Below are positions 20,021-32,926 of a stretch of DNA of 34,031 nucleotides, piece by piece (the stretch's first letter is position 1; each line of letters opens with the position of its first letter). The position numbers were made by a program, and so were the translations under genes. This DNA comes from a virus (taxonomy: Duplodnaviria; Caudoviricetes): IMG/VR virus record IMGVR_UViG_3300006879_000011, positions 1-34,031 of that record; one strand, given 5' to 3'. The notes below the pieces were generated by a model. It saw only the letters and a program-made list of their open reading frames with translations. It did not search any database and was not told where the DNA came from.

Positions 20021-20093
20021 ATAATAACACATTTATAGCCTCATGCACGCTCAAATTCCCTTTTTTTGTGTCATTTGTTCTCATTTATTCTCA
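20021..20093 (-). promoter_or_regulatory. Putative late promoter with activator-binding direct repeats
   Basis: Three 10-bp phased repeats TGAGAATAAA/TGAGAACAAA/TGACACAAAA (20093-20064) start at the regulator's stop codon; extended -10 TG-T-TATTAT (20029-20021); no good -35. Matches the known layout of RinA/ArpU-activated ter promoters. Confidence 0.65.
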
Positions 20094-20501
20094 CGCTTCC
20101 AAAAAAATATCAATTTCTTCAGTAGCGTGCTTGCGCAAACGGTAATAAGTTGATTGACTGATTTTTAAATGTTCCATAACGTCCTCAGGATATTGTTTCA
20201 AAATGTACGTCATACGTAAAATGGCACGTTCTTTTGGATTAGAAACTTTATTGATTAGCCTGCTTAATTCAAGCTTACGATTGATAGCTTCGTTCGTATC
20301 CTGTTCGATTGACTCTTTTAAAACAATAAGTTGCGCATAAACATCATCGACTTTTACTGGTTTCCCGCCCTTGATTTTGTCGCTTGACCACTTAGGGCTA
20401 GATAACAAACCAGCCTCTAGCGTTCTTACCTCGTCAATTCTGCTTTGGATGTCTGCGTCTAGATTTTTAAGTTCGTCAAGTAATTGTGATGCCTTCCCCA
20501 T
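20091..20501 (-). CDS. Late transcriptional activator, ArpU/RinA-like (DUF1492)
   Basis: 136 aa just upstream of terS; sigma-r4-like C-terminal HTH (ILRMTYI...LKISQSTYYRLRKHA). Confidence 0.85.
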   Translation of the reverse strand: MGKASQLLDELKNLDADIQSRIDEVRTLEAGLLSSPKWSSDKIKGGKPVKVDDVYAQLIVLKESIEQDTNEAINRKLELSRLINKVSNPKERAILRMTYILKQYPEDVMEHLKISQSTYYRLRKHATEEIDIFLEA

Positions 20502-20515
20502 TCCCTAGCTCCTCG

Positions 20516-20534
20516 TGATATAATGTGGTATAAT
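20516..20534 (+). promoter_or_regulatory. Antisense extended -10 promoter(s)
   Basis: Two tandem TGnTATAAT elements on the plus strand (20516-20524, 20526-20534) point at a terminator about 25 bp downstream. Confidence 0.55.
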
Positions 20535-20557
20535 AATGTTAACGTATTCATACCACG

Positions 20558-20587
20558 AAAAGCCTTGCGTAAGCAGGGCTTTTTTTT
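20558..20587. terminator. Bidirectional intrinsic terminator
   Basis: AAAAGCCTTGC-GTAA-GCAGGGCTTTTTTTT; long T tract on the plus strand, 4 T on the minus strand. Confidence 0.8.
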
Positions 20588-20645
20588 CTTTTGCAGGCAG
20601 GCGCACGACCTGCAAGAATTATCGTGATTCACGCCTTGCATAATA

Positions 20646-20728
20646 ACAGTCGACTGATAGAACTGCGTTAGATTGTAGAAAGTAACACTTTTAGAAATGA
20701 CTATCTGTTATTGATATTTTAATCAGCC
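20646..20728 (-). ncRNA. Candidate pseudoknotted long-loop RNA, copy B
   Basis: P1 GGCTGAT/ATCAGTC; P2 GCAGTT/GACTGT crosses it; 2-nt linker. Hand-folded. Confidence 0.5.
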
Positions 20729-20730
20729 TC

Positions 20731-20819
20731 GCCAGCTTGCGCCTAGTGACAACTGACTGTTTTGTACTTTTAGAAAACAGAAAAGGAGTTCCTCCGTTCT
20801 TTTTTTTTAAATTCTAGGC
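20731..20819 (-). ncRNA. Candidate pseudoknotted long-loop RNA, copy A
   Basis: P1 GCCTAG/CTAGGC; P2 GTCAG-TTGT/GCAA-(G)-CTGGC; 2-nt linker; A-rich loop. Hand-folded. Confidence 0.5.
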
Positions 20820-20821
20820 TA

Positions 20822-20864
20822 TACCCATGAACCGAATTGAACGGTTCTAAATACCTTTATGGGT
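20822..20864 (-). ncRNA. tRNA-like minihelix (acceptor + T arm mimic), copy 2
   Basis: ACCCAT-AAAGGTATTTA-GAACCG-TTCAATT-CGGTTC-ATGGGT-A. Confidence 0.7.
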
Positions 20865-21072
20865 TGTCATCTTCGCTATCCGTCTGATAAACAATAATCT
20901 GATTATCCTCCAGCTTTTTTATTTTTGCTTTTGCCTCTTTCAACTCAGCCTGCAAGTCTGCAACCTGTTGTGCGTAACTTGATTTAACGCTCTCAAATCC
21001 AGCGTACATACTAGCTCCAAGCACACCTACACTTATGCAGACCGAGAGGGCGAAGAGCCAGTTAAATTTCAT
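20857..21072 (-). CDS. Small membrane-anchored coiled-coil protein
   Basis: 71 aa with N-terminal TM and GGAGG RBS. Confidence 0.75.
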   Translation of the reverse strand: MKFNWLFALSVCISVGVLGASMYAGFESVKSSYAQQVADLQAELKEAKAKIKKLEDNQIIVYQTDSEDDNP

Positions 21073-21076
21073 TTTT

Positions 21077-21412
21077 CTACCCTCCTAGCTCTAAACGCTC
21101 AATTCCTTCAGCGCGTTCAATTTTGCGGCGCTGCCTACGGAGTCGTTTAGTTTCCTCTGTGTCAAATTTCTTGATAGCGTATAAATACACTTCCGTTTCA
21201 TGCCCCGGCTTAATGCGATCCGATTTTGCTCTAAGTGCATCCAGTGCAATATCGGCTGGGATATAATCAAGTAATTCGATTAGAATATCGAACGGTGGCA
21301 TTAATCCTTTGATTTTAGCACATCGGTAACGTTTGCGGTCATAATCATCCAAAACTAACTGCAGCAATACATCTTCCATTGCTTCATAGAATTTTTTTGT
21401 TACTCTATCCAT
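21077..21412 (-). CDS. Hypothetical protein
   Basis: Start revised to ATG 21412 (RBS GAGGG, just after the upstream stop); 111 aa, basic C-terminus. Confidence 0.7.
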   Translation of the reverse strand: MDRVTKKFYEAMEDVLLQLVLDDYDRKRYRCAKIKGLMPPFDILIELLDYIPADIALDALRAKSDRIKPGHETEVYLYAIKKFDTEETKRLRRQRRKIERAEGIERLELGG

Positions 21413-21413
21413 C

Positions 21414-21779
21414 TTATCCCTCTTTTTTGCGTTCTCTACGTTCTTTGTGATAGTTTTGATAGTACTCTTTATGTTCTTTATAATAGTTTCTGTAATATTC
21501 TTTCCTATCACGTACTTTTTCTAAATCGCTTCTATAGGCTCTCAGAAGCTCTCTAAGCCCCTCTTTTGCTTCCGCGGTAAAATCTACGTCTCCTTGCTTA
21601 ACGACGCTTATAAACGTTTCTAGGACGTCTATAGTGGCTCTCAGTTTTACAGCTTTCCCGACTGGCTCACCCGTATAGTTTTTGAAGGTGTTTTTTTCTA
21701 CCAAAAACTTGAACCTGTCCTTATCACTAATCGAATTTATCAAGATAGCTTGATACTGCTTTTTATCTAGTAGGTGCAT
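21414..21779 (-). CDS. Hypothetical protein with YYxxYY basic helical C-terminus
   Basis: 121 aa, AAGGAG RBS, own promoter. Confidence 0.7.
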   Translation of the reverse strand: MHLLDKKQYQAILINSISDKDRFKFLVEKNTFKNYTGEPVGKAVKLRATIDVLETFISVVKQGDVDFTAEAKEGLRELLRAYRSDLEKVRDRKEYYRNYYKEHKEYYQNYHKERRERKKEG

Positions 21780-21811
21780 TCATTTTCTCCTTTGCTTTAC
21801 TTTATAAATAT

Positions 21812-21848
21812 ATTATAACTAACTTGTTTTAATTTGTCAACACTTTTT
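21812..21848 (-). promoter_or_regulatory. Consensus sigma70 promoter
   Basis: AAAAAGTG-TTGACA-17 bp-TATAAT. Confidence 0.9.
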
Positions 21849-22254
21849 ATTGAAAAAGTTTAAAATATTTTTCGGCTTTTTTAATCGCTTTGTCCACGAA
21901 ATATTCCATACGTTCCTTGTCCGAAATTCCAGCTGCATCAGCTTTCTTGTTGTAATGCCATAATTGTGTTGCTTTACCCAGTTGCTCGTCAATCTCCATG
22001 GCAAACGTTAATTTGATTTGTTCGTTAAGCTCCTTAAACTCTTCACCAGTTAGTTTCCTTGTTTTGCTTTCAGTTAAGATACGGTTTTTTAAATACTGTT
22101 TAGTGCGTGTAATTTTACGTTGCATACTAACCAAGTTGCCGTCAGTAGCAATCCAGGTGTAATTCGTAATTACTTTAGCTAACTCTTTCCAAGCCTCAGC
22201 CTGCCAGCAGCGTTCCAAATATTCCTCATCTGTTATCACAATCATTTTATCCAT
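21847..22254 (-). CDS. Hypothetical protein
   Basis: 135 aa ORF with AAGGAG RBS downstream of the origin. Confidence 0.75.
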   Translation of the reverse strand: MDKMIVITDEEYLERCWQAEAWKELAKVITNYTWIATDGNLVSMQRKITRTKQYLKNRILTESKTRKLTGEEFKELNEQIKLTFAMEIDEQLGKATQLWHYNKKADAAGISDKERMEYFVDKAIKKAEKYFKLFQ

Positions 22255-22289
22255 GTCTTTTCTCCTTTTTGTATATTTGCATATTTTTT

Positions 22290-22645
22290 ATTTTTGACCA
22301 CATGACCACTATTTTTTCTCTATATAAATAAAATAAAATTAATATATAATAATTAAATATAATAATTAAAATATATTATATTATATTATTTTAATGGTAA
22401 TTTATATATTTTATATAGCTAAACCCTTGATATTACTGCATTTTTGGATTACCACGTAAGCTGGTAAGGTATTTTTACAGAAATGCTCTAAGCCCTTGAT
22501 ACAACTGGATTTGTGATGTTACCACGTAAGCTGGTATGTTTCTCATTTTGCTGGTAATTACATGGTTTTTCCCACAAAAAAGTTAAATTATTACCACGTA
22601 TTTGGTGGTAACTTTTACGATTACCACCACTTATATGGTAATATT
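22290..22645. other. Putative replication origin (AT-rich tract plus iterons)
   Basis: Non-coding region right after the VirE-type helicase; nearly pure A/T at 22321-22417; TTACCACGTAAGCTGGTA twice (22449, 22519); further TTACCA..TGGTAA palindromes at 22591-22611 and 22621-22641. Confidence 0.8.
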
Positions 22646-22684
22646 TTTATACATTTTAATGCATAAATGAATACTTATTCTTGA

Positions 22685-24034
22685 TTACTGTTTGATTCGT
22701 TTATAGCCACGAACTAGTGAACCATGGACTGACTTGCGTGTGTTCTTGAATTCTGGGTTGTTATCCATCCAAATTTTGATTCTGCTGATTGTTTTTTTGT
22801 CTGTCGCTTCTTTATTGAATACGTTGTAAGCGATTTGTTTCAACGTGATAAAATCCTGTTTGGTTGTTAACTCATAAGTGCCGTCTTCTACCAACTGGTA
22901 TCTAAATCCATAAAGCTGGCTTTGTGTTAATTGTCTTTGCTGCGTGATATTCAGCTCGCTGAAATTTTCTGGAAGCAACAAGTCAAGGTAGCGTTCGATT
23001 TCTTCCACCATCGGGTCAATGTATTTGAAGCTTTCTTGGTACTCGATACGTTTTTCATCAAGTTTGTCGAAACTATCTAAGTCATACCCGTTTTTGTAAA
23101 GAGAAACAGCCTCACCCCACAGTTGGATGATGTCGTCTTCTTCCATCTTCATTGGGTGCTTCTTCTGCTCTTCTGGGTTTACTAGGATAGGCATAAAACG
23201 TCGGTCGCCTGTGTTGTCTTTTAAGTATTCAATATTGTTTGTTGTTCGTGCGATAACGAAGTTCTTCGCATATGAAGCGCCCCGTCTGTCATAAGATTTT
23301 CGGAACTCTAAAACGGTTTTAGAAATAAATGCTTTTGTTTCGTCAAAGCTCATTCTTTTTGAGGCTGTCATTTCATCATCGTTCACGATTAAAGCTTTAA
23401 GCATGACGTTATAAGAATCCTTATCTGTAAAGCTAACAGCATTTGACGTGTACCAGCCGCGGGCAATTTTAGATAGAAATGAAGTCTTACCAACCCCTTG
23501 ACCTCCTACTAGGTCTAGGACTGTATCCACTTTAGTGAGTGGTTCGTAAACTTTAGCAACTGCACTTGTGAAAAATACTTTTGCAATGGTTTCCGTGGTT
23601 TCGTTGACCTCTGCACCTAGCCAGTAATTAAATACTGTTTTTAGTCGTTCCTTGCCGTCCCAAACCTTAAGAGCTTGCTCCATATAATCCTTAACTGGAT
23701 TGTACTTCTTAGTGTCCCAAAAGATATTAAGCGCACCAGTGATTGCAGCTGGTTTAAATACCACATCAAGCTCTGTCTCAAAGTATTCAGAAAGAATATC
23801 CTCAAAACTTGGCTTGATTGAACCTTTAGGTATCAAAGTGCCATTTAAATAGAAATCGTTGATAACCTCAGGCTCTTGTGTGAACTCGTTAAATGCTAGG
23901 TTATCAGCGAATACGTCTGCGTTTAAAAGTAATGTTTTAACGTTGTATATTGAGTTACTTACTGGAATTCCGTTTTTATCCAACTTTAAACTTGTACCAT
24001 TTACTGTTTTATCCATTTTTATTACTTCACCCAT
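22685..24034 (-). CDS. VirE/VapE-family P-loop ATPase (primase-associated helicase)
   Basis: Walker A GGQGVGKT, IVNDDEM, and RTTNNIEYLKDNTGDRRFMPI, QLWGEA motifs. Confidence 0.9.
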   Translation of the reverse strand: MGEVIKMDKTVNGTSLKLDKNGIPVSNSIYNVKTLLLNADVFADNLAFNEFTQEPEVINDFYLNGTLIPKGSIKPSFEDILSEYFETELDVVFKPAAITGALNIFWDTKKYNPVKDYMEQALKVWDGKERLKTVFNYWLGAEVNETTETIAKVFFTSAVAKVYEPLTKVDTVLDLVGGQGVGKTSFLSKIARGWYTSNAVSFTDKDSYNVMLKALIVNDDEMTASKRMSFDETKAFISKTVLEFRKSYDRRGASYAKNFVIARTTNNIEYLKDNTGDRRFMPILVNPEEQKKHPMKMEEDDIIQLWGEAVSLYKNGYDLDSFDKLDEKRIEYQESFKYIDPMVEEIERYLDLLLPENFSELNITQQRQLTQSQLYGFRYQLVEDGTYELTTKQDFITLKQIAYNVFNKEATDKKTISRIKIWMDNNPEFKNTRKSVHGSLVRGYKRIKQ

Positions 24035-24037
24035 TTT

Positions 24038-24202
24038 TTAAAACTCCTCCGATACTTTAATTTCGAGGTCGTAACTCCAAACGCCATCTGCATGAGCTAG
24101 GTCTTCGGCGGTTGCTTTTGCTTCTTCAATGTTATCTGCATCAATGATAAAAGTGTCAATTTCTTTTCCGTTTTTAATAAATTTTACTTCAAATTCTTTC
24201 AT
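24038..24202 (-). CDS. 54-aa acidic protein; not in ORF track
   Basis: AAGGAG RBS; MKEFEVKFIKNGKEIDTFIIDADNIEEAKATAEDLAHADGVWSYDLEIKVSEEF. Confidence 0.8.
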   Translation of the reverse strand: MKEFEVKFIKNGKEIDTFIIDADNIEEAKATAEDLAHADGVWSYDLEIKVSEEF

Positions 24203-24231
24203 GTTTTTTCTCCTTTATTCTTGTTTATTCG

Positions 24232-24453
24232 TTATTTCACTTCTTCGGCATATTTCCAAGCCCATGCAAAGTCTTTTTTGATTTCTGCTTCAGTTAGTTG
24301 ATAGCACTCGTAACCTTTCCAGTCGTCTGACTCAAAGCACCAGATGCATACTTGACCTTCTGCGTATTTACGTAATACGTAGTGTTCTGGTGGCGTTTGG
24401 TTAGGAATTTCAACTGTGTAACGTTTTTCTTTAGGTGTTTCTTGTTTAATCAT
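24232..24453 (-). CDS. Stand-alone C-terminal module of DUF1642-type proteins
   Basis: KEKRYTVEIPN...LTEAEIKKDFAWAWKYAEEV resembles the C-terminal half of streptococcal DUF1642 proteins. Confidence 0.65.
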   Translation of the reverse strand: MIKQETPKEKRYTVEIPNQTPPEHYVLRKYAEGQVCIWCFESDDWKGYECYQLTEAEIKKDFAWAWKYAEEVK

Positions 24454-24486
24454 TTTTTTTGGTTCTCCTTTATTCTTTATATATAT

Positions 24487-24538
24487 ATTATATCAAATTT
24501 TTGGGCATTGTCAACACTTTTTTGAAAAAAAGTTTAAT
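24487..24538 (-). promoter_or_regulatory. Consensus sigma70 promoter with upstream inverted repeat
   Basis: ACTTTTTTTCAAAAAAGTG-TTGACA-16 bp (ending TGn)-TATAAT. Confidence 0.88.
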
Positions 24539-25361
24539 TTTTTTTACTGTATCTTCTATCTGTATTGTACATAGACTCAATCGTGGTGTGCAGCTCCCTA
24601 GCACTCAGTGGTTGTGGACTCTTGTCGTTCATAACATTGACTAATAAGACAACGATTTCTTTTTCAATCCCCATTGAAATGAGTTTTCCAGTGTAACTTG
24701 CCACCGTGTTATTCCTAGCTCCTTCACCGCCTAAACCTTTTAAACACTCATTGACAGCTTGGGTTACTTTAGAAACTTTGGGAACGTCTCTTTTGAAGCA
24801 ACTGAGAGCGCCTGTGTATCGTGTCTTATCGTCTTCAATTCCAGCTGTTTCTTTGATAGCGTTGGTAAATTCTTCTGTAGCCATTGCAAAGGCTAGATTT
24901 TCAAGAGACTTCTCAAAGTCCCATTTATAAGCTGCTCCATCAATCACGCTTGGCGGAGCTACTACGTAATTATTGACGTGGAACTTAATGTCGACACCAT
25001 CTAAAAAATCCACTTTTTGCGGCATTGTAAAACCGACTGGCTTTTTGAAAAACAAGTGTTTCCCACCGCTGGCGGTCAAGACTTGGCTGGTGCGTGGTAT
25101 TGTTCTGACGTGTTCCCATTCTTTCAACGATTGATAGCCATTATTTTCACCGTGGACGTCAATATCAATCACGAAAAAGTCCCTTGTTTTCAGAGCAATA
25201 TTTGCGTTCGGTGTTTTTGTCCAAACTTCTACAATCTCGCTCTCGGTCATCGGTGGTCTATCTGCGAACTTCTGCATAGGTCTTTTTGTGTTTGGTATTA
25301 ACGGAACAACGTCAAAGCCTCTGCGTGCGTATCCAAGTGCAAAATGTAACATATTTTCCAT
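24534..25361 (-). CDS. Bifunctional DNA primase/polymerase (Prim-Pol + PriCT-1)
   Basis: VIDIDVH, TASGGKHLFF, YVVAPPS and GARNN...ELHTTIES motifs. Confidence 0.92.
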   Translation of the reverse strand: MENMLHFALGYARRGFDVVPLIPNTKRPMQKFADRPPMTESEIVEVWTKTPNANIALKTRDFFVIDIDVHGENNGYQSLKEWEHVRTIPRTSQVLTASGGKHLFFKKPVGFTMPQKVDFLDGVDIKFHVNNYVVAPPSVIDGAAYKWDFEKSLENLAFAMATEEFTNAIKETAGIEDDKTRYTGALSCFKRDVPKVSKVTQAVNECLKGLGGEGARNNTVASYTGKLISMGIEKEIVVLLVNVMNDKSPQPLSARELHTTIESMYNTDRRYSKKN

Positions 25362-25392
25362 AATTTTTTCTCCTTTATTTTTTTTGCTATTC

Positions 25393-25563
25393 TTAAATTA
25401 TTTCAGTTGTCGAGTAGTCTGCATCGTAATACTTTTTAAGTGCTTCAGCGATTGTTCTAGCATCTGACAAGCTCATAGTTTTTAATAAGAACAGTTTGAA
25501 AGCTTCTTCACATCCCTTAGAATATAGCGAAATCCTTATATTAAATTCTTTTAGTTCAAACAT
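25393..25563 (-). CDS. 56-aa hypothetical protein
   Basis: Start revised to ATG 25563 (RBS AAAGAGG), behind its own promoter. Confidence 0.7.
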   Translation of the reverse strand: MFELKEFNIRISLYSKGCEEAFKLFLLKTMSLSDARTIAEALKKYYDADYSTTEII

Positions 25564-25596
25564 AAAAAAACCTCTTTCAACTTTTTTTGTAATTAA

Positions 25597-25626
25597 ATTA
25601 TACAACATATTGTGTCTGATGGTCAA
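25597..25626 (-). promoter_or_regulatory. sigma70 promoter
   Basis: TTGACC-18 bp-TATAAT. Confidence 0.7.
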
Positions 25627-25637
25627 TAGTAAACACA

Positions 25638-25665
25638 GAAAAAGAGAAGTTTTTTTACTTCTCTT
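25638..25665 (-). terminator. Intrinsic terminator after ssb
   Basis: AAGAGAAGT/ACTTCTCTT stem followed by T tract. Confidence 0.7.
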
Positions 25666-25674
25666 ATTACTGTT

Positions 25675-26013
25675 TTAGAACGGCATATCAAGGTCTGAAA
25701 TGTCAACTGATTGATTACCGAATGAATTTGTTTCAGCATCTGTCAAAAAGTCTGTAATGGCGATTTGTGGGTACACTCCTTTTCCGTCAGCTTTTTTGTG
25801 AGAGTAGCGCCCTTTAACCTCGACAAGGTTACCGATTGAGGCTTCTAGCTTTGGAATGTTGTCACCGAAAGCAACAACGTTAATGTAGCCATTCACCCAA
25901 TTGCCTTGCTCGTCTTTCCCATTTGAAAAAGACATACTTGCTGTCATAAATTTGTTAGTCTTTTTGTTGTATTGATCATTAAAATTGATCCATCCACGGT
26001 TTTGAATATCCAT
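25675..26013 (-). CDS. ssb: Single-stranded DNA-binding protein
   Basis: OB-fold pattern (YINVVAFG, LVEVKGR) and acidic C-terminal DISDLDMPF. Confidence 0.88.
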   Translation of the reverse strand: MDIQNRGWINFNDQYNKKTNKFMTASMSFSNGKDEQGNWVNGYINVVAFGDNIPKLEASIGNLVEVKGRYSHKKADGKGVYPQIAITDFLTDAETNSFGNQSVDISDLDMPF

Positions 26014-26015
26014 AA

Positions 26016-26585
26016 TTATTTTTCCTCCATTGTTTCGTTTTTATATTTCCAAATGTACCCACCAGCTGTTTTGTATACACCCTTGGCGCATTTTGTTATA
26101 TTAGACACATGAGTGCCTGTTGCATTACAAGCCGACGACAAACTTTCGTATTCTGCAACTAGCTCACCATCTATAGATAGCTGCCGCACTGCCCTGCCTT
26201 GTGCTTCAACTATTGCCTTTCTCGCCCGTTCTTGACGCGTGCCGTAATTTAAATTTTCTTTGTGAGTCACCCATTCTAAGTTGCTTGCGTGATTGTTGCT
26301 TGGATTTTCGTCCTTGTGGTTCACCTCTTCCTTTTCTAAGGGGTTAGGAACAAATGCTTCGGCGACAATACGGTGAATATTAGCGGATTTTGTACAACCG
26401 TCTTTGTGAAGAGTGACTCCGGAATAACCACCACTGTAACTAGAGCCCTTGAGTATTCTATCTTTTATTTTACGCTTGCGGCCGTCATTGCATTCAACGA
26501 TTCTGGCTAAGCTCCTCACTCTGCCAATGTTTGATACTTCATAGAACCCCTCATACCCAACAACTGGCTTCCAAATTTCTTTCAT
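26016..26585 (-). CDS. NUMOD4-HNH homing endonuclease
   Basis: [23 protein letters not shown]; HRIVAEAF..VNHKDE..NN..NLEWVT; C-terminal TAGGYIWKY. Confidence 0.93.
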   Translation of the reverse strand: MKEIWKPVVGYEGFYEVSNIGRVRSLARIVECNDGRKRKIKDRILKGSSYSGGYSGVTLHKDGCTKSANIHRIVAEAFVPNPLEKEEVNHKDENPSNNHASNLEWVTHKENLNYGTRQERARKAIVEAQGRAVRQLSIDGELVAEYESLSSACNATGTHVSNITKCAKGVYKTAGGYIWKYKNETMEEK

Positions 26586-26616
26586 GATTATTTTTATTCT
26601 CCTTTTTAATTCAGTT

Positions 26617-27249
26617 TTACAGTCCAGCTTTCACCATCAATTGCTTAACAAGTGCGTTCGCTTTTGCGTAGCTAGACTGGTTGATTGCCTCAAAGTTATC
26701 AACTCCAATCCGTTGCGCCACCCAGTTCTCTAGCTCGTTTACGTCTTTACCTGTTGCGGTTGCTAATTTAACCAAGTCGAGTCGTAGAGCTGTCACATCG
26801 TCTTTAGAGAACTTCCTATTTGAACCTTGTGACCCCCCGCCAGTAATCTTTTGGTGGCTGTCGCTATCTGGATCAACCGCATCATCGATAAGGAAAAGCC
26901 CATTTAACGCATATTTACGACTGTAAGATGATGCTGTACCAGTTGACTGGCTGTGGTCCATCCCTTTTTTTTGCTCCGCTTCCCTAGCCATCGCCTTAAC
27001 GCTGACAGATTCGCCTGTTTCGCAATCAATGAATGTCGCCGTTGAAACAACATACGACCAAAGGCACTCGCTCACTTTAATCTCGTCACTTAATAGCACG
27101 ATTGCATTATGCTCTTTTAAAATAGGTTTAAGGGCTTCTAATATATCTTCGCAGCTTCTATACATATAGTTACCAAAATTATTCTTTTTATTTTTTGGCG
27201 CTTTAAGCTCTGATTGGACTGCTAACAATTTTTTATAAACTTCTTTCAT
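26617..27249 (-). CDS. ERF-family single-strand annealing recombinase
   Basis: YRSCEDILEALKP and QSTGTASSYSRKYALNGLFLIDD ERF motif. Confidence 0.92.
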   Translation of the reverse strand: MKEVYKKLLAVQSELKAPKNKKNNFGNYMYRSCEDILEALKPILKEHNAIVLLSDEIKVSECLWSYVVSTATFIDCETGESVSVKAMAREAEQKKGMDHSQSTGTASSYSRKYALNGLFLIDDAVDPDSDSHQKITGGGSQGSNRKFSKDDVTALRLDLVKLATATGKDVNELENWVAQRIGVDNFEAINQSSYAKANALVKQLMVKAGL

Positions 27250-27269
27250 GTTTTTTACCTCTTTTTTTA

Positions 27270-27827
27270 TTAACTTCTAACTACTTCTTCTTTGTATTTC
27301 CAAATATATCCGCCAGCCGTCTTGCGTTTTCCACGTACACAAGCAGAAATATTTTTGAAAGTTATTCCGAGTTTTCTATCAGCTTCGTGTATGCTCCAAA
27401 ATTCGGCTACGATTTTACCATCTCTAGTGAATTGTTGAATTGGTTTTCCTTGCGTTTTCGCCATGCGTTCGTTGTGTGTCCCATGATTGTTATTTTCTTT
27501 GATAGTCATCCACTCTAGATTTTCTACACGGTTGTCAGTTTTAATCTCATTGATATGATTAACTGTTGGTTTATTCTCTGGGTTAGGGATAAAAGCTGTA
27601 GCAACTAAACGATGGATTGTCGCAGTTTTATGTCCTCTATTGTTGCAAAGAGTTACATATGAGTATCCGTGAGTGTTATTTCTTGATTTCAACACTTTCC
27701 CCTTATACTTGTGTTTTGCTCCATTGCTGTATGTAACAATTCTGTCGCAACTCCTAACCCTACCAATGTTACTAACCTCATATATCCCCTCATAACCGCT
27801 TATCGGTTTCCAAATTTCATCTGTCAT
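27270..27827 (-). CDS. NUMOD4-HNH homing endonuclease
   Basis: [23 protein letters not shown]; [20 protein letters not shown]; TAGGYIWKY. Confidence 0.93.
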
Positions 27828-27855
27828 GTTTTTTCTCCTTTTGTTTTATGTACTA

Positions 27856-27908
27856 ATTATACAACTTACTTTTCTTTTTGTCAACACTTTTTTTGAAAAA
27901 AGTTTAAA
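27856..27908 (-). promoter_or_regulatory. Consensus sigma70 promoter with upstream inverted repeat
   Basis: ACTTTTTTCAAAAAAAGTG-TTGACA-17 bp-TATAAT. Confidence 0.9.
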
Positions 27909-27909
27909 T

Positions 27910-28827
27910 TTATTTCACCATGAACAATTTCTCTGTTTTGTCGCCATAACCTTGTGCGGCGAGTGTCGACTTGGATTTTTTAAATTCGTAAACACATTGG
28001 AAACGTTCGTCAGATATTTCATAACTTGAAATTAAAACAATGTTTTTCTTACTCATTTCATAAGCCCAATTATAAAATGATTGACTGTTAAATCTATCTA
28101 TTGAATATCCTTTGAGCGTTGTTCCTTCATATGGTGGGTCAAGATATAAGATAGCGTTTTCTACTCTAGAAAAAGCTTTATAGTCTAGGTTTGTTACTCT
28201 TAAGTCCTCAAGTTGTTCAAATTGTCCGAGTTGCTGAATCCGCTCCAATTGCTGAACCTGCTCCAATTGCTGCAAGCGTTGTGACTGTTCTAAAACTTGA
28301 GTCCTATCTACTTTCCCAACATCAAACGGACGGTAGGCGTTCTTATAGGTGTCTGTTTTTTTATACCCGCGGAAAGTATCGTGGTTTTTAATTATTTCAA
28401 TAGCTAAGTTGTATTTAATATCTGAAAATTCTTTGCTATATAAGTATCCTATTTTATTGTTCCCAAAAGAATTAACCAAAAGTTTTAAATTATCATTAAC
28501 GGATTTTTCTTGTTTGTCTCTAATCTTGAAAAATTCTTCTCGTCTTATAATGAGTGTCTTTAAGTATTCCCTATCTGATAAAATAACCTTTTTAAACATT
28601 TCTGTTATTGTTTCGTCTAAATCATTATAGTGTACATCTAATCCATTTATTAAGCATTCAGCAGTGATTGCGCCACCGCCACCGAAGATATCATAAATTG
28701 GTTTATCAGTGCCGAAATTCTGTTTGATAATCTCTACAATCTTCTTGCTGATTTTCTTTTTAGAGCCTTGATAAGGAAGTCCAATAGCCTTCCCTTTTCG
28801 CACTTTCTTTTCATCCAGCGTTAACAC
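27910..28827 (-). CDS. Orphan N6-adenine DNA methyltransferase (D12/Dam-like, group alpha)
   Basis: PYQGSK (motif X), DIFGGGGA (motif I), LYLDPPY (motif IV). Confidence 0.88.
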   Translation of the reverse strand: MLTLDEKKVRKGKAIGLPYQGSKKKISKKIVEIIKQNFGTDKPIYDIFGGGGAITAECLINGLDVHYNDLDETITEMFKKVILSDREYLKTLIIRREEFFKIRDKQEKSVNDNLKLLVNSFGNNKIGYLYSKEFSDIKYNLAIEIIKNHDTFRGYKKTDTYKNAYRPFDVGKVDRTQVLEQSQRLQQLEQVQQLERIQQLGQFEQLEDLRVTNLDYKAFSRVENAILYLDPPYEGTTLKGYSIDRFNSQSFYNWAYEMSKKNIVLISSYEISDERFQCVYEFKKSKSTLAAQGYGDKTEKLFMVK

Positions 28828-30022
28828 TCGTTACCTCCGAAAAATAAAATTCAATAATATTTACGTCATGTTTTTGACGGCTTCCTGTCACTCGCCAAAG
28901 CAATTGGCGATAGTCGTCATATTCCCCACTGTTCTCATCTACTGGGTCAAGGACTGCAAGTGTTTTAAATTTATCCTGAAGCCCATCGACCCCAACACCT
29001 AGCGTCTGCGCCGTAGCAACGACAATAGGTGCAGTAAGTAGCTCTTTAGTAGTACCAGTCCAAATTCCAATCTGTGGATTCCTCTCTTTGATAATATTCG
29101 CTATTTGAACGCTTTTAGTCACGATAAGCATTTCGTGCGGCGCTTTAGCAATAAGCCTGTCCACCTCTTTTAGTAGCGGCGTGTCTTCATTGACCGCTGT
29201 TAATTTTGGAAAATCAATATCAAAGCCCGTTTGGTTAAGAATCCGCTCAAATGCTGTTTTGCCAAAGGATAGCTTACTCATCGCTGTTTTCCCGTTCTTG
29301 GTTACAACGTTGTAAGTGTTCAGCATTTTCAATGCATCAGGGTTGGCGCATGGTAGCGTGTTTTTGAAAAATTTAATCTTAAAGCCGTTGTTTTCTTCGG
29401 CATTTTCGATTTTTTCTATTTCTTCCCACCGCATGAAGTTTGGCAAATTAGAAATATAACTTTCATAGTTTCTAAAATCCGCCCACTTGGTTTTGGAGTA
29501 TGAAAACGCATCGTACACCATTTTCCCGTGAGCCAGTTCCCAATCAAATTTTCGGTTCGGGTTTGCTCTTTTCCAAAGGGTTTTTTCAAGTGGATAAAAG
29601 TTCTGCCCTTTTTTTCTAATTGGTGTGGCACTTAAGCCGATTGTGTACCCTCTTTTTACTTTCTTATAAGCGTTGACACAGTTTTTCGAGCTGACATTTT
29701 GCCACTCGTCAATAATAAGCACGTCACAAGCCATTTTAGAGCCCTCTTTGACGATGTTAGAAAGCTTCTTATCTGTAAGTGCTACTAATTCAAACGACTT
29801 ATCGTACCCAAACTCATTATAAGATTTTCCCCAACCGCTCAGGATACTCACCCTGTTATTTACAACAATGACCTTCTTAGCCTTCCTTTGTTTAGCGATT
29901 TCTAGCGCGCACAAAGTCTTGCCGCGACCCCCAGCCGCTTCTAAAAAGATGCCTCCTCTCTCGTCATTGATTGAACGCTTTATCGCCTCTTCTTGCCATT
30001 TACGAGCCTTGAACTGTTTCAT
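28811..30022 (-). CDS. Superfamily 2 helicase
   Basis: Q motif RKWQEEA, Walker A GGRGKT, DEWQ, SAT, GVGVDG and QLLWRVTG. Confidence 0.85.
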   Translation of the reverse strand: MKQFKARKWQEEAIKRSINDERGGIFLEAAGGRGKTLCALEIAKQRKAKKVIVVNNRVSILSGWGKSYNEFGYDKSFELVALTDKKLSNIVKEGSKMACDVLIIDEWQNVSSKNCVNAYKKVKRGYTIGLSATPIRKKGQNFYPLEKTLWKRANPNRKFDWELAHGKMVYDAFSYSKTKWADFRNYESYISNLPNFMRWEEIEKIENAEENNGFKIKFFKNTLPCANPDALKMLNTYNVVTKNGKTAMSKLSFGKTAFERILNQTGFDIDFPKLTAVNEDTPLLKEVDRLIAKAPHEMLIVTKSVQIANIIKERNPQIGIWTGTTKELLTAPIVVATAQTLGVGVDGLQDKFKTLAVLDPVDENSGEYDDYRQLLWRVTGSRQKHDVNIIEFYFSEVTSVNAG

Positions 30023-30470
30023 TCAATAATTCTCCTACTCCATTTATAAAGTCTTCAATATCTGACCTCATAGCGTAAAATAAAGCCAATCTTGCTGCCG
30101 CCCTCACGTCATTGTGGTGGCTTTCCCCGAACTTCCAAAGTCCGAGCGCTTTTAATAGCTCGTTAGGTACATCAGTCTGATAACCTCCGTTCCTGAAAGG
30201 TTCGGCGCATGGTATCAGTCTTTGTACTTCAGCTATTGTCTCCAGTACAGAATTGTCCTTAGATTTTGAGTTGTCTCTGGCTTCAAAGTGCTCAAAAATA
30301 ACTTTATCACATTTTATTTTATTGAATTCATCTTCAAACCACTTTCTGAACCCTTTTACGCCAAACGATAAGCACCAGTGGTCTAGTAGCTTGCCATTTT
30401 CAATCAGTACGATGCCGGTATTTGATTTTGTAGCCTTGTTGGAGCTCGGGTCAATAGATAGTATTTTCAA
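30000..30470 (-). CDS. RuvC-like Holliday junction resolvase (RNase H fold)
   Basis: ILSIDPS..TGIV, VIFE and HHNDVRAAARLA patterns; TTG start with AAGGAG RBS. Confidence 0.7.
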   Translation of the reverse strand: MKILSIDPSSNKATKSNTGIVLIENGKLLDHWCLSFGVKGFRKWFEDEFNKIKCDKVIFEHFEARDNSKSKDNSVLETIAEVQRLIPCAEPFRNGGYQTDVPNELLKALGLWKFGESHHNDVRAAARLALFYAMRSDIEDFINGVGELLNETVQGS

Positions 30471-30489
30471 TACAAAATCTCCTTAATTT

Positions 30490-30672
30490 TCACCATTCTT
30501 TAGCGCCTTCCAGGAACATCATGTTTTCAAAATCAGCCTCAAGTGTCAAGATTTGGTTAGAGCCGATGTCTATAAGAACACCGTCATCGGTGCGCATATA
30601 AAAAATAATGTGTTTTGGGTTAATGTATACGTATTCACTTGTTTCAATATCTAATAGTTTGTAAAACTTCAT
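30490..30672 (-). CDS. 60-aa hypothetical protein
   Basis: GAGG RBS; VYINPKHI motif; tight packing with neighbours. Confidence 0.7.
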   Translation of the reverse strand: MKFYKLLDIETSEYVYINPKHIIFYMRTDDGVLIDIGSNQILTLEADFENMMFLEGAKEW

Positions 30673-30829
30673 CTAAATTTCCTCGATTTTAACATTTTCT
30701 ATCTTACAATGATTGTTTAAATTTCTCAAAACTTGCAGCACTGTCTCAAAATATCTAAATGTTTCAACGCAAGTGCGCTCGCCTAGCTCAGTGTGCAGCG
30801 TATAAGTCAGTCTATATTTTTTTATTCAT
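30673..30829 (-). pseudogene. Small ORF interrupted by one extra base in an A7 run
   Basis: GGAG RBS then ATG AAT AAA AAA ATA TAG. With A6 it reads MNKKYRLTYTLHTELGERTCVETFRYFETVLQVLRNLNNHCKIENVKIEEI and ends flush with the next ATG (157 nt = 3n+1). Confidence 0.65.
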
Positions 30830-30992
30830 TTGTTAAACACTCCAATTCGATAGAAACTGTTTTATCTTGTTTAGCTAATTCGTCATACAAAAAGTTGGCT
30901 GAACGCTCATAATTACAGACAATTTGTCGTTCGTCAATATACCCATCATCTATCTTAGTCTTCCACATTATCAAAAATTTCTTGTCTCCCAT
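30822..30992 (-). CDS. 56-aa hypothetical protein; not in ORF track
   Basis: GAGGG RBS; MGDKKFLIMWKTKIDDGYIDERQIVCNYERSANFLYDELAKQDKTVSIELECLTNE. Confidence 0.72.
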   Translation of the reverse strand: MGDKKFLIMWKTKIDDGYIDERQIVCNYERSANFLYDELAKQDKTVSIELECLTNE

Positions 30993-31004
30993 TTTAATCC
31001 CTCG

Positions 31005-31151
31005 CTAAACATATTCAGGCACAACTTCGATTCCGTAAGCGTCTTCGTCCGTTAACATTTTTACAAATGTTGCCAATTGTTCTTCGTCTTTTGCAACCAT
31101 CTTAAAACGGTGGGTGTCGCAAGGCACTGAATAGTAAATGGTATACTTCAT
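31005..31151 (-). CDS. 48-aa hypothetical protein; not in ORF track
   Basis: GAGGT RBS; MKYTIYYSVPCDTHRFKMVAKDEEQLATFVKMLTDEDAYGIEVVPEYV. Confidence 0.75.
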   Translation of the reverse strand: MKYTIYYSVPCDTHRFKMVAKDEEQLATFVKMLTDEDAYGIEVVPEYV

Positions 31152-31167
31152 GTTTTTTTTACCTCTC

Positions 31168-31458
31168 TTATAGTTCGTTAAATTTCTTTTCTAACAAGTC
31201 AGTCAACGTTGTTTCGTAATCGCTAAGCGTTCTAATTTGTTTTTGTTTCTCGGCAAAGAGCTCCTCGGTTGGGATGCTATCAAGAAACGGTTGCCAGCGT
31301 TCTATAATTTCCTGCATCGCTTCGTTTACTTCTCTCTCGATTTCTTTTGTAAATTCGCCGCTTTTGATTTGCATGGTTTCGTTACTTACACCGCCGTATT
31401 TTTCATATTTTTCTGGCGCTAAAATCAATTCTTTGTGCTTATTGACATAGATTTTCAT
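31168..31458 (-). CDS. Hypothetical protein
   Basis: Start revised to ATG 31458 (GGAGG RBS); 96 aa. Confidence 0.75.
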   Translation of the reverse strand: MKIYVNKHKELILAPEKYEKYGGVSNETMQIKSGEFTKEIEREVNEAMQEIIERWQPFLDSIPTEELFAEKQKQIRTLSDYETTLTDLLEKKFNEL

Positions 31459-31573
31459 GTGTGCCCTCCTCAATTTCTTCTGTGTGTGCTTTTTTAGCTC
31501 TCTTGCCTACAAATGGCAATGTAATTACTTCAACGAACGCTAAAACTGTGACTGTGATAATTAAATGTGTCAT
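31439..31573 (-). CDS. 44-aa membrane peptide; not in ORF track
   Basis: AAAGGA RBS, ATGA overlap; MTHLIITVTVLAFVEVITLPFVGKRAKK... Confidence 0.6.
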   Translation of the reverse strand: MTHLIITVTVLAFVEVITLPFVGKRAKKAHTEEIEEGTHENLCQ

Positions 31574-31800
31574 GTATTATCCTTTCTAAATTCATCTAAG
31601 CTGACTTCTAAAACGTCAGCTATTTTGACCATATTTCGAAATGAGATTTTACTATTTCGAATATTTTGGATTGTGTTTTGACTAATTCCTGATTTTTCCG
31701 CAAGTTCTTTTTTTGTCATTCCTTTTTCAATCAAAATATGATTTAATTTTTTCCACAGATATTCACCATTTTCTTTTCTTAGTTCTTTCAGTGTATCCAT
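31570..31800 (-). CDS. XRE/Cro-like HTH regulator
   Basis: GMTKKELAEKSGISQNTI...KIADVLEVSLDEF; first gene behind a consensus promoter. Confidence 0.9.
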   Translation of the reverse strand: MDTLKELRKENGEYLWKKLNHILIEKGMTKKELAEKSGISQNTIQNIRNSKISFRNMVKIADVLEVSLDEFRKDNT

Positions 31801-31831
31801 TGTCTTCCTCCTTTTTTTTACTTATCTTACA

Positions 31832-31865
31832 AGTATATTATATTATATATACTACAATATGTCAA
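31832..31865 (-). promoter_or_regulatory. Consensus sigma70 promoter with operator-like inverted repeat
   Basis: TTGACA-17 bp-TATAAT; AGTATAT-8-ATATACT (31832-31853) spans the -10. Confidence 0.88.
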
Positions 31866-31871
31866 TAGTTT

Positions 31872-32051
31872 TTAAAATTTTTTTAAATTTTCTTTGATAA
31901 GTTCTTGTAATTCAAGTAAATCATCTTTCGTGGCATTGTTGCGAATAAACCCACGAGACGTTGACCTTTTAGTTAAATAATTTCTGTGCTCTCTATTTCT
32001 TGCGTTCCATTTTTTGTTAGCTCGTTGTTGTGGTGTTAGTTGCTCGTTCAT
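31872..32051 (-). CDS. 59-aa basic helical protein (RANKKW..NRE..YL..RS..R.FI pattern); not in ORF track
   Basis: GAGG RBS; MNEQLTPQQRANKKWNARNREHRNYLTKRSTSRGFIRNNATKDDLLELQELIKENLKKF. Confidence 0.8.
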   Translation of the reverse strand: MNEQLTPQQRANKKWNARNREHRNYLTKRSTSRGFIRNNATKDDLLELQELIKENLKKF

Positions 32052-32074
32052 TGTTTTTTTCCTCTCTTTTTTTA

Positions 32075-32410
32075 TTAGCAGAAAGAACGGAATTCACTGT
32101 CTTGAATACGTGCGAATTTAGCAGCAAGTTGCCAAATTGTTCCTTCTGAATTGTGTTCAGTAGCGAATTTTTTCCAAGCGTCAAAATCCCAGTTTACAGG
32201 TGTTTTGGCTACTTTGATGCGTGCCCATGTCATTGCTTTACCAAGCTCTTTATCTTCTTTTGAAACTTTTTCAGTTTTGTGTGCTTCGTTACGTAGAAAT
32301 GTTTTGTAGATATTCCAAGCGTATTTCAACGCATCTGAAAAAGTGATTTTGTTAGCTTTAAACATTTTCCATGCTGCTTTGAAAAGTTCTGATTTGTTAG
32401 TGATTTTCAT
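32075..32410 (-). CDS. acrIIA3: AcrIIA3-like anti-CRISPR protein
   Basis: Collinear motifs resembling AcrIIA3 as recalled: NKSELFKAAWKMF, TFSDALKYAW, KAMTWARIKV, IWQLAAKF. First gene behind a consensus promoter. Confidence 0.65.
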   Translation of the reverse strand: MKITNKSELFKAAWKMFKANKITFSDALKYAWNIYKTFLRNEAHKTEKVSKEDKELGKAMTWARIKVAKTPVNWDFDAWKKFATEHNSEGTIWQLAAKFARIQDSEFRSFC

Positions 32411-32436
32411 GTTTTTTTCCTCTTTCTTTATCTTAT

Positions 32437-32503
32437 ATATATATTATAATACATATAATACATATTGTCAACACTTTTTTAAACTTTTTTTAAACTTTTT
32501 TTT
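32437..32503 (-). promoter_or_regulatory. Consensus sigma70 promoter with phased A-tract UP element and palindrome over the -10
   Basis: Three A-tracts, AAAAAAGTG-TTGACA-17 bp-TATAAT; 20-bp palindrome with one mismatch at 32437-32456. Confidence 0.9.
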
Positions 32504-32591
32504 GATATTTGGGAATTTACTTGGAAAATAAAAAAACGTTGATATTATGAGCTTTGTTGGTATTTGGGAATTTACCTGGAAAATAAAAAAA
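32502..32591. repeat. Two 35-bp direct repeats with a 20-bp spacer
   Basis: TTGRTATTTGGGAATTTACYTGGAAAATAAAAAAA at 32502-32536 and 32557-32591 (2 mismatches). Confidence 0.9.
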
Positions 32592-32611
32592 GAGCCAGCA
32601 AAAGCTAACTC
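32585..32611 (-). terminator. Intrinsic terminator closing the RNA cluster
   Basis: GAGTTAGC-TTTT-GCTGGCTC followed by T7. Confidence 0.8.
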
Positions 32612-32617
32612 ATTTTC

Positions 32618-32718
32618 CCGACAGAGTAACCAGATGAACCCAGCCAGCGATGTAATAATTTTTTTAAGTGTGCAAAAGAGTGTGTTAATCACCTCTATTC
32701 TTTTTATTTTTTCTGGTT
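32618..32718 (-). ncRNA. Candidate pseudoknotted long-loop RNA, copy C
   Basis: P1 AACCAGA/TCTGGTT; P2 CTGGC-T-GGGT/ACTC-T-GTCGG; TCA linker; A-rich loop. Hand-folded. Confidence 0.5.
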
Positions 32719-32720
32719 AA

Positions 32721-32800
32721 TAGAGAGGGAGGGAGTCGAACCCTCAAAGCTTTACGCTCCCTGATTTCAGGTAAACATCTTCCAATTCTGAGACCTCTCT
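32721..32800 (-). tRNA. Class II tRNA-like gene / pseudo-tRNA lacking an anticodon loop
   Basis: Acceptor AGAGAGG/CCTCTCT plus A73; D-loop AATTGG; variable arm GAGC-GTAAA-GCTT; T arm GAGGG-TTCGACT-CCCTC. Anticodon arm is CCTGA-AA-TCAGG; no CCA encoded. Confidence 0.7.
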
Positions 32801-32803
32801 GAA

Positions 32804-32846
32804 TACCCACGCAAGGACTCGAACCTTGCCAGATACCGTTGTGGGT
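32804..32846 (-). ncRNA. tRNA-like minihelix (acceptor + T arm mimic), copy 1
   Basis: ACCCAC-AACGGTATCTG-GCAAGG-TTCGAGT-CCTTGC-GTGGGT-A. Confidence 0.72.
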
Positions 32847-32926
32847 TACCGATTGTTTGTAAAATATCCTAGCAATGTTCCAAAGGTCACACTTACTATA
32901 CAGATCATTACGATTACATACTTCAT
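32846..32926 (-). CDS. 26-aa hydrophobic peptide; not in ORF track
   Basis: GAGGT RBS, ATGA overlap with the DUF1642 stop; MKYVIVMICIVSVTFGTLLGYFTNNR. Confidence 0.55.
   Translation of the reverse strand: MKYVIVMICIVSVTFGTLLGYFTNNR

Follow-up and report, generated by a model that had tools for sequence, protein, structure and literature searches.

The window analysed here, all 34,031 nucleotides (nt) of the tailed-phage record IMGVR_UViG_3300006879_000011 (Duplodnaviria; Caudoviricetes), carries two non-coding clusters built from minihelices that mimic the elbow of tRNA and from long-looped, pseudoknotted modules that follow them. Related streptococcal phages carry the same folds, with minihelix closely linked to module and the modules shuffled from phage to phage, in arrays just upstream of a late activator gene of the DUF1492/ArpU type. 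Our interpretation, offered tentatively and at somewhat less than even confidence, is that the tRNA-mimic minihelices release pseudoknot-clamped small RNAs (sRNAs) predicted to pair with host ribosome-binding sites and to repress translation.

Minihelices, modules and arrays

Each window minihelix has two stems of six base pairs (bp), an 11-nt linker with GG and a TTCRANT loop, and together these supply the 12-bp acceptor/T stack, T loop and D-loop GG of a tRNA-like processing signal. Used as a search pattern, this fold matched twice in the window against 0.00 times in 100 shuffles, which bears out the 43-nt minihelix that a preliminary description of this DNA had placed at each cluster. When just the stem ends, GG linker and T loop were prescribed and six positions per copy left free, matching loci numbered 76 among viruses, 8 among genomes and 75 among metagenomes. 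The free positions are paired in 364 of 366 cells (61 distinct contexts, 84 viral and genome loci) and in 319 of 330 cells (55 contexts, 73 metagenome loci), chance matches included in both counts. Both 43-nt minihelices of the window are members of this covarying family and, as judged by comparing sequences, the tRNA mimics are conserved in structure, not in sequence. A relaxed pattern applied to 1.53 Mb of host contig gave four matches, all fully paired, in two prophage-like regions. A covariance model gave at least 13 matches in at least five of 150 Streptococcus genomes, a lower bound obtained with 43 candidates scored per genome; all lie amid phage-type genes, judging by the nearby open reading frames (ORFs) inspected. 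U follows the discriminator in 104 of 111 distinct elements, and CCA is encoded in none.

The minihelices might themselves be the effectors, acting after CCA addition as decoys of the tRNA top that draw off enzymes targeting the acceptor end or elbow of tRNA. Their strong structural conservation would suit such a role, as would finding the same minihelix 3' of the activator gene and also in other contigs, mostly unrelated, that lack these modules. Yet the acceptor sequences vary widely, as those of a shape signal would, the coupling to modules described below is left unexplained, and read depth is the lowest of the region over the minihelix, though short structured RNAs are under-sampled; we consider this role decidedly unlikely. 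The unrelated contigs (L055, L074, L076, L078, L087, L096, L181 and L209) carry the minihelix, sometimes twice at 109 nt apart, before other long structured non-coding RNAs; three such loci scanned gave no Rfam match, and L074 was unmatched among deposited phages. Some pyogenic prophages (L044, L048, L347, L355, L357) have a second minihelix or a larger tRNA-like RNA between the activator gene and the packaging genes.

At least six classes of module (I, II, III, IV, V and Z) occur behind minihelices and have one pseudoknot layout in common: the 5' strand of stem P1, a long A-rich loop, the 5' strand of stem P2, 2-7 nt, the 3' strand of P1, 0-3 nt, and the 3' strand of P2. The first loop measures 17-100 nt in units of 45-130 nt, and in the five long classes it holds a Shine-Dalgarno (SD)-like tract together with its complement. 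In sequence-only alignments the stems are paired in 92.9% of cells for class II (double changes in 8 of 11 pairs; second stem 100% paired, with up to six pair types), 96.3% for class III (8 of 13), 91.3% for class Z (6 of 10) and 82.8% for class I (9 of 17, with visible register slips). In each of these four classes more cells are paired than in any of 500 column shuffles or in any slid control; relatedness inflates the shuffle test. Classes IV and V, with six copies each, were assessed by alignment-free pairing only. The window's module at 32719-32618 has a weak second stem, with G-U pairs and a U-U mismatch. Comparison with Rfam had been proposed as a check at the outset; a scan of the window and 22 homologous loci returned only tRNA and sub-threshold matches, with no module matched and with skipping-rope (RF02924) among the families scoring nothing. 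A more distant streptococcal prophage (L348; G125 C68) has another module type and a class II variant behind a minihelix. A likeness of class III to the tracrRNA nexus was put down to coincidence between palindromes.

Compared over 82 distinct clusters, the elements keep one order: minihelix-IV, minihelix-III, minihelix-I or V, II, Z, terminator, activator. Modules have been gained and lost within it, and one to five are scored per cluster. The distance from discriminator to module is 0-3 nt across differing minihelix sequences. A tRNA-like arm lies upstream of class I in 53 of 54 copies, of class III in 33 of 33, and of classes IV and V in six of six each, the class I loci having been reached by way of the minihelix, the activator gene or the motifs of classes II and III. 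The least biased test used the class III motif itself: 26 of its 33 matches are real modules, and all 26 have an adjacent upstream tRNA-like arm, with several unrelated minihelix sequences among them. The linkage in related phages that the preliminary description had asked about is present and tight. A class II motif scan of the collection was too strict and gave six loci; three false pattern matches and two loci that are apparently the window's own record (L169 and L222) were left out of the module counts. Each of the three full prophages of S. pyogenes SF370 carries modules, as do many more deposited streptococcal phages (91 records); the gaps that hold them mostly lack annotation. Near-identical arrays were also seen on short contigs filed under non-streptococcal genomes (L118, L119, L122, L123), which are probably misbinned or contaminating phage DNA.

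The two clusters of the window

Every identified gene of the window is on the minus strand, and in both its non-coding DNA and its late activator the window is nearest to phages of the S. bovis/equinus group. The first cluster (20592-20864), between an ORF of 71 amino acids (aa) and the DUF1492 regulator, reads minihelix-V-II-Z; the second (32582-32846), flanked by a 26-aa ORF and by the perfect sigma-70 promoter at the head of a 12-kb replication block, reads minihelix, tRNA-like RNA, class I (Table 1). As first described, both minihelices abut the stop of a small hydrophobic ORF and a terminator closes each cluster. The same internal order had been claimed for both; the orders differ because the first cluster holds three pseudoknots in a row, only the leading one of them behind a mimic. 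A long-loop RNA had been placed 2 nt past the last discriminator, which is correct at 32719, but the distance at 20819 is 3 nt. Since both cluster starts are joined in a single continuous array in L119, rearrangement of one array is the probable origin of the two loci. Five perfect TTGACA/TATAAT promoters are spread across the 12-kb block between the clusters (21812-32471, minus strand).

An anticodon-less tRNA had been assigned to the first cluster; such an RNA does exist, but in the second, at 32800-32721. It scores 29.1 bits (E 0.03) with the Rfam tRNA model RF00005 and has the 7-bp acceptor, 5-bp T stem and T loop of a tRNA. A 4-bp stem with a 4-nt loop replaces the 7-nt anticodon loop on a 5-bp stem, and ARAGORN called no tRNA at this position. 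Its pneumococcal-phage relatives are annotated tRNA-OTHER. Genes resembling tRNA-Lys(UUU) lie 3' of the activator gene in two other loci (L042 1438-1510 and L066 1243-1315), one of them with an altered anticodon arm.

Table 1. Features of the two clusters and their immediate neighbours (window coordinates)
Feature	Position	Strand	Match or basis
71-aa ORF, hydrophobic N-terminus, stop inside minihelix	20857..21072	-	phrog_30456
43-nt tRNA-elbow minihelix, 6+6 bp, GG linker, T loop, discriminator A, no CCA	20822..20864	-	
Pseudoknot module, class V; P1 20819-20814/20746-20741, P2 20757-20750/20739-20731, SD/anti-SD hairpin 20800-20779	20731..20820	-	
Pseudoknot module, class II; P1 20728-20722/20658-20652, P2 20666-20661/20651-20646; usual SD-like tract absent in this copy	20646..20728	-	
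Pseudoknot module, class Z; P1 20636-20632/20603-20599, P2 20614-20609/20597-20592	20592..20636	-	
Intrinsic terminator hairpin, U-runs on either side, before late activator	20557..20584	two-way	
Two TGnTATAAT extended -10 boxes facing the terminator; predicted promoter of ~45-nt antisense RNA	20516..20534	+	sequence reading; position homologous to Spy_sRNA1212757
DUF1492 protein, phage transcriptional regulator (presumed ArpU-type late activator)	20091..20501	-	
26-aa hydrophobic ORF; last stop base is first minihelix base	32846..32926	-	
43-nt tRNA-elbow minihelix	32804..32846	-	
80-nt tRNA-like RNA, 7+5 bp stack, long variable arm, no 7-nt anticodon loop	32721..32800	-	
Pseudoknot module, class I, divergent copy; P1 32719-32712/32634-32627, P2 32647-32639/32626-32618, SD-like 32696-32690, anti-SD 32682-32677	32618..32719	-	
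Intrinsic terminator, then perfect sigma-70 promoter at 32471-32443	32582..32611	-	

At 20516-20590 (+), two extended -10 boxes aim into the two-way terminator that precedes the late activator. At the corresponding position, prophage 370.2 of SF370 makes Spy_sRNA1212757, a 43-nt RNA validated by Northern blot (PMC4829319), and RNAs of this type are candidates for antisense control of late-gene read-through. The array itself might act in cis, as a stabiliser or as an antitermination or attenuation element that times read-through into the activator gene. That would account for its constant position right before this terminator, for the antisense RNA that covers the terminator in the homolog, and for classes II and Z, the most constant, being placed last. 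We nevertheless think cis action quite unlikely: clusters differ freely in how many modules they hold and of which type, the second cluster of the window closes with a terminator followed by its own promoter and has no activator behind it, and cutting would separate the upstream modules from the transcript. Published SF370 sRNAs were considered as modules and rejected, since among the matches listed from PMC4829319, Spy_sRNA544833 lies 3' of the activator gene and Spy_sRNA1212757 is the antisense RNA at the terminator. A solitary CRISPR-repeat-like 36-mer, possibly an RNA anti-CRISPR, lies 3' of the activator gene in one phage (L042 1646-1681, plus strand; CRISPR-DR22, 33.5 bits, below cut-off).

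Proposed processing and predicted targets

Under the interpretation that we favour, RNase Z would probably cut after the discriminator, 0-3 nt ahead of the module's first helix. RNase P and RNase Z use ruler-type recognition, which the 12-bp minihelix stack, measured from the T loop, fits (PMC4919913), and streptococcal RNase Z cleaves directly 3' of the discriminator (PMC8549757). RNase P would be the probable second enzyme at the minihelix, and RNase Z alone would suffice for the model. Rather more likely so than otherwise, the 5'-end helix and 3'-end pseudoknot would then shield the released RNA from exonucleases while it displays a 40-80-nt loop. In a last predicted step, to which we give even weight for and against, the anti-SD tract, held by the internal SD-like tract, would open from an unpaired toehold onto the target leader.

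Expression data came from four runs of unstranded libraries in two studies, covering a homolog 99.6% identical to S. pyogenes prophages. In raw runs, module to minihelix bins compare as 48:5, 90:20 and 70:5, a 4-14x difference, the fourth run being too thin; these depths are compatible with processing. The preliminary description had cast the tRNA mimics as cut sites; conserved structure together with close linkage agrees with this putative role, and the read depths are suggestive only. Several observations weigh against processing as proposed. With finer binning one run reverses, at a minihelix depth of 14 against 6-7 for the module; the four runs contain no read pile-up at the predicted end and map no RNA end; and the depths are confounded by a second prophage copy that adds boundary reads and by possible antisense transcription. 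Absence of CCA is normal for all streptococcal tRNAs (PMC8549757). Class II is behind a tRNA-like arm in only 12 of 47 copies and otherwise behind class I or V, and class Z stands behind other modules. Finally, in 37 of 67 cases the first minihelix overlaps the stop codon before it, in 26 of them by the codon's last base, and because an RNase P cut there would destroy the stop codon it would leave a non-stop message. On these last three points the original proposal that all effectors are excised as 83-101-nt RNAs is unsupported in that form.

The anti-SD tracts of the five long classes are predicted to pair with host leaders, at medians of -8.0 to -9.9, against -5.0 to -7.0 when shuffled. For class I, whose extension beyond the internal hairpin is predicted to be partly unpaired, the nrdD leader ranks first among 1396 called leaders of S. 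equinus Sb05 contig C6 for 12 of 24 segments tested (of 36 distinct). The duplexes run to 20 bp, cover the SD and reach the start codon, and their mean score lies above 6 of 6 and 22 of 22 flank-shuffled sets. Four bovis-type genomes have the leader motif GTAAGAAGGAG and three pyogenic-type genomes have GTAAGGAG; the same three bases separate the host groups in the seed and in the nrdD leader. Seeds fitting the bovis-type leader occur in 41 of 54 class I modules, and those fitting the pyogenic-type leader are confined to 12 of 47 class II modules, all of pyogenic type. The shorter nrdD motif is carried by about 1% of genes. The nrdD leader is a possible, though doubtful, predicted target of class I. 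Another candidate, pcsB, was rejected: a 13-nt complement is found at pcsB-like leaders of seven genomes of another group, and bovis-type pcsB leaders match over 7 nt only. There was no recurrent complement at phage start sites, and no host sRNA stood out as a target for sponging.

Much has to be set against this lead. The nrdD segment was picked once the match was known, five classes were tried, the variants are related by descent, and the target screen covered contig C6 alone, 1.53 of about 2.0 Mb. The rank of nrdD falls to third when whole loops are used and is 39th for the window's own class I copy; among C6 leaders, no gene stands clear of shuffles for classes III, IV, V or bovis-type II. 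Pyogenic pairing spans 8-9 bp only, and a prophage in one pyogenic-type host (G003) is without the seed although the host has the motif. The internal hairpin also accounts for the class I loop changes, and the 16S tail is bound more strongly by the SD-like tract than an SD is by the anti-SD tract. For the antisense regulation of host mRNAs first suggested there is a specific lead, the predicted pairing of class I with nrdD, and that lead is a post hoc one.

A different explanation is that the released RNAs are decoys: their A-rich SD-like tract would imitate a translation start and thereby sequester 30S subunits, host anti-SD sRNAs or an RNA-binding defence protein. The five long classes bind the 16S tail at medians of -9.7 to -13.2 kcal/mol, against -5.2 to -7.5 when shuffled, at least as strongly as host leaders (-8.95). 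In class III the purine tract is invariant and the tail variable, and a start codon follows the SD-like tract in 28 of 31 copies, often opening a frame of 4-5 codons. But the tract is predicted to be paired within the module, it has been lost from the window's class II copy, an A-rich tract may simply pack against the stems, and no host non-coding region of contig C6 has a standout complement to it; decoys seem unlikely. In the short class III frames (e.g. L008 9548-9625) the ATG is followed by an in-frame stop; the peptide sequence is unconserved, and the ATG is missing in some copies.

Taken furthest, the release of targeted sRNAs by minihelices would make the array a multiplexed cassette: a reusable tRNA-mimic separator recruits host RNase Z, a pseudoknot frame stabilises the products, and swappable loop seeds track host leaders, nrdD being the first candidate, as the phage changes host group. 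This fuller picture is speculative, and we would not bet on it. Its logic would be analogous to that of a CRISPR array or a microRNA cluster. If the processing model is true, the 42-nt element would serve Gram-positive bacteria as a natural minimal tag for RNase Z, and phages multiplex small RNAs by tRNA punctuation. Both the nrdD pairing and the predicted RNA ends are specified to the base and open to testing in cultured phage-host pairs.

Comparison with known systems

The closest parallels to the mimics are the t-elements of plant mitochondria (PMC1920247) and mascRNA-type processing (PMC4919913), in which a non-decoding tRNA-like element is likewise set for RNase Z to make the 5' end of the RNA behind it. 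The element described here differs in being encoded by phages of bacteria, in its 41-45 nt and 6+6 stack, and in punctuating arrays of non-coding modules rather than mRNAs; here, cleavage is what we infer.

Resemblance to two other kinds of phage RNA raises the alternative that the modules are type III-like antitoxin mimics or self-cleaving ribozymes of theta/HDV (hepatitis delta virus) type, which we hold very improbable. Theta ribozymes of gut phages (PMC10879173) are pseudoknotted and begin at a tRNA 3' end, much as the modules begin right at a tRNA-like 3' end. Theta, however, has the nested double-pseudoknot HDV fold and a catalytic C, whereas each module is one two-stem knot whose first loop is long, and it stands behind a mimic and not a tRNA. 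The nested double pseudoknot is absent from them: the 2-7 nt between P2a and P1b give no space for an extra HDV-fold helix, 0-3 nt separate P1b from P2b, and there is no Rfam match. Type III antitoxins (PMC4627078) and pseudo-ToxI share with the modules tandem pseudoknots, here with A-rich linkers, and phage RNA arrays. Yet the modules form no identical or near-identical repeats, adjacent ones being of differing classes, and the downstream gene encodes the DUF1492 protein and not a toxin. Their loop lengths are also the reverse, with 17-100 nt in the first loop against one base in L1 of the 45-nt CptI (PMC4627078). The antitoxin mimicry once suggested for these RNAs fails on this layout.

Small anticodon-less tRNA mimics are also known as skipping-rope (RF02924), DUF2693-FD (RF02926) and salivarius-1 (RF03030) RNAs; these three models gave no match in the window at E up to 1, and the neighbours scanned include no DUF3800-type partner gene. 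P4 CI, P1 C4 and the csRNAs are, like DicF, sRNAs that act on translation by base pairing, the phage ones being processed from longer transcripts; those are single RNAs, in contrast to the interchangeable modules, common pseudoknot frame and reusable tRNA-mimic separator seen here. For DicF, a prophage small RNA, the comparison draws on PMC8383071. Among the matches listed by full-text literature searching there was no description of the system, and single modules may be among the 10,006 viral candidate RNAs of PMC10690425, whose table has 114 Streptococcus occurrences. The system is real, conserved and uncatalogued: its kind, tRNA-punctuated processing, is known, its RNA families are new, and its mechanism is the one we infer.

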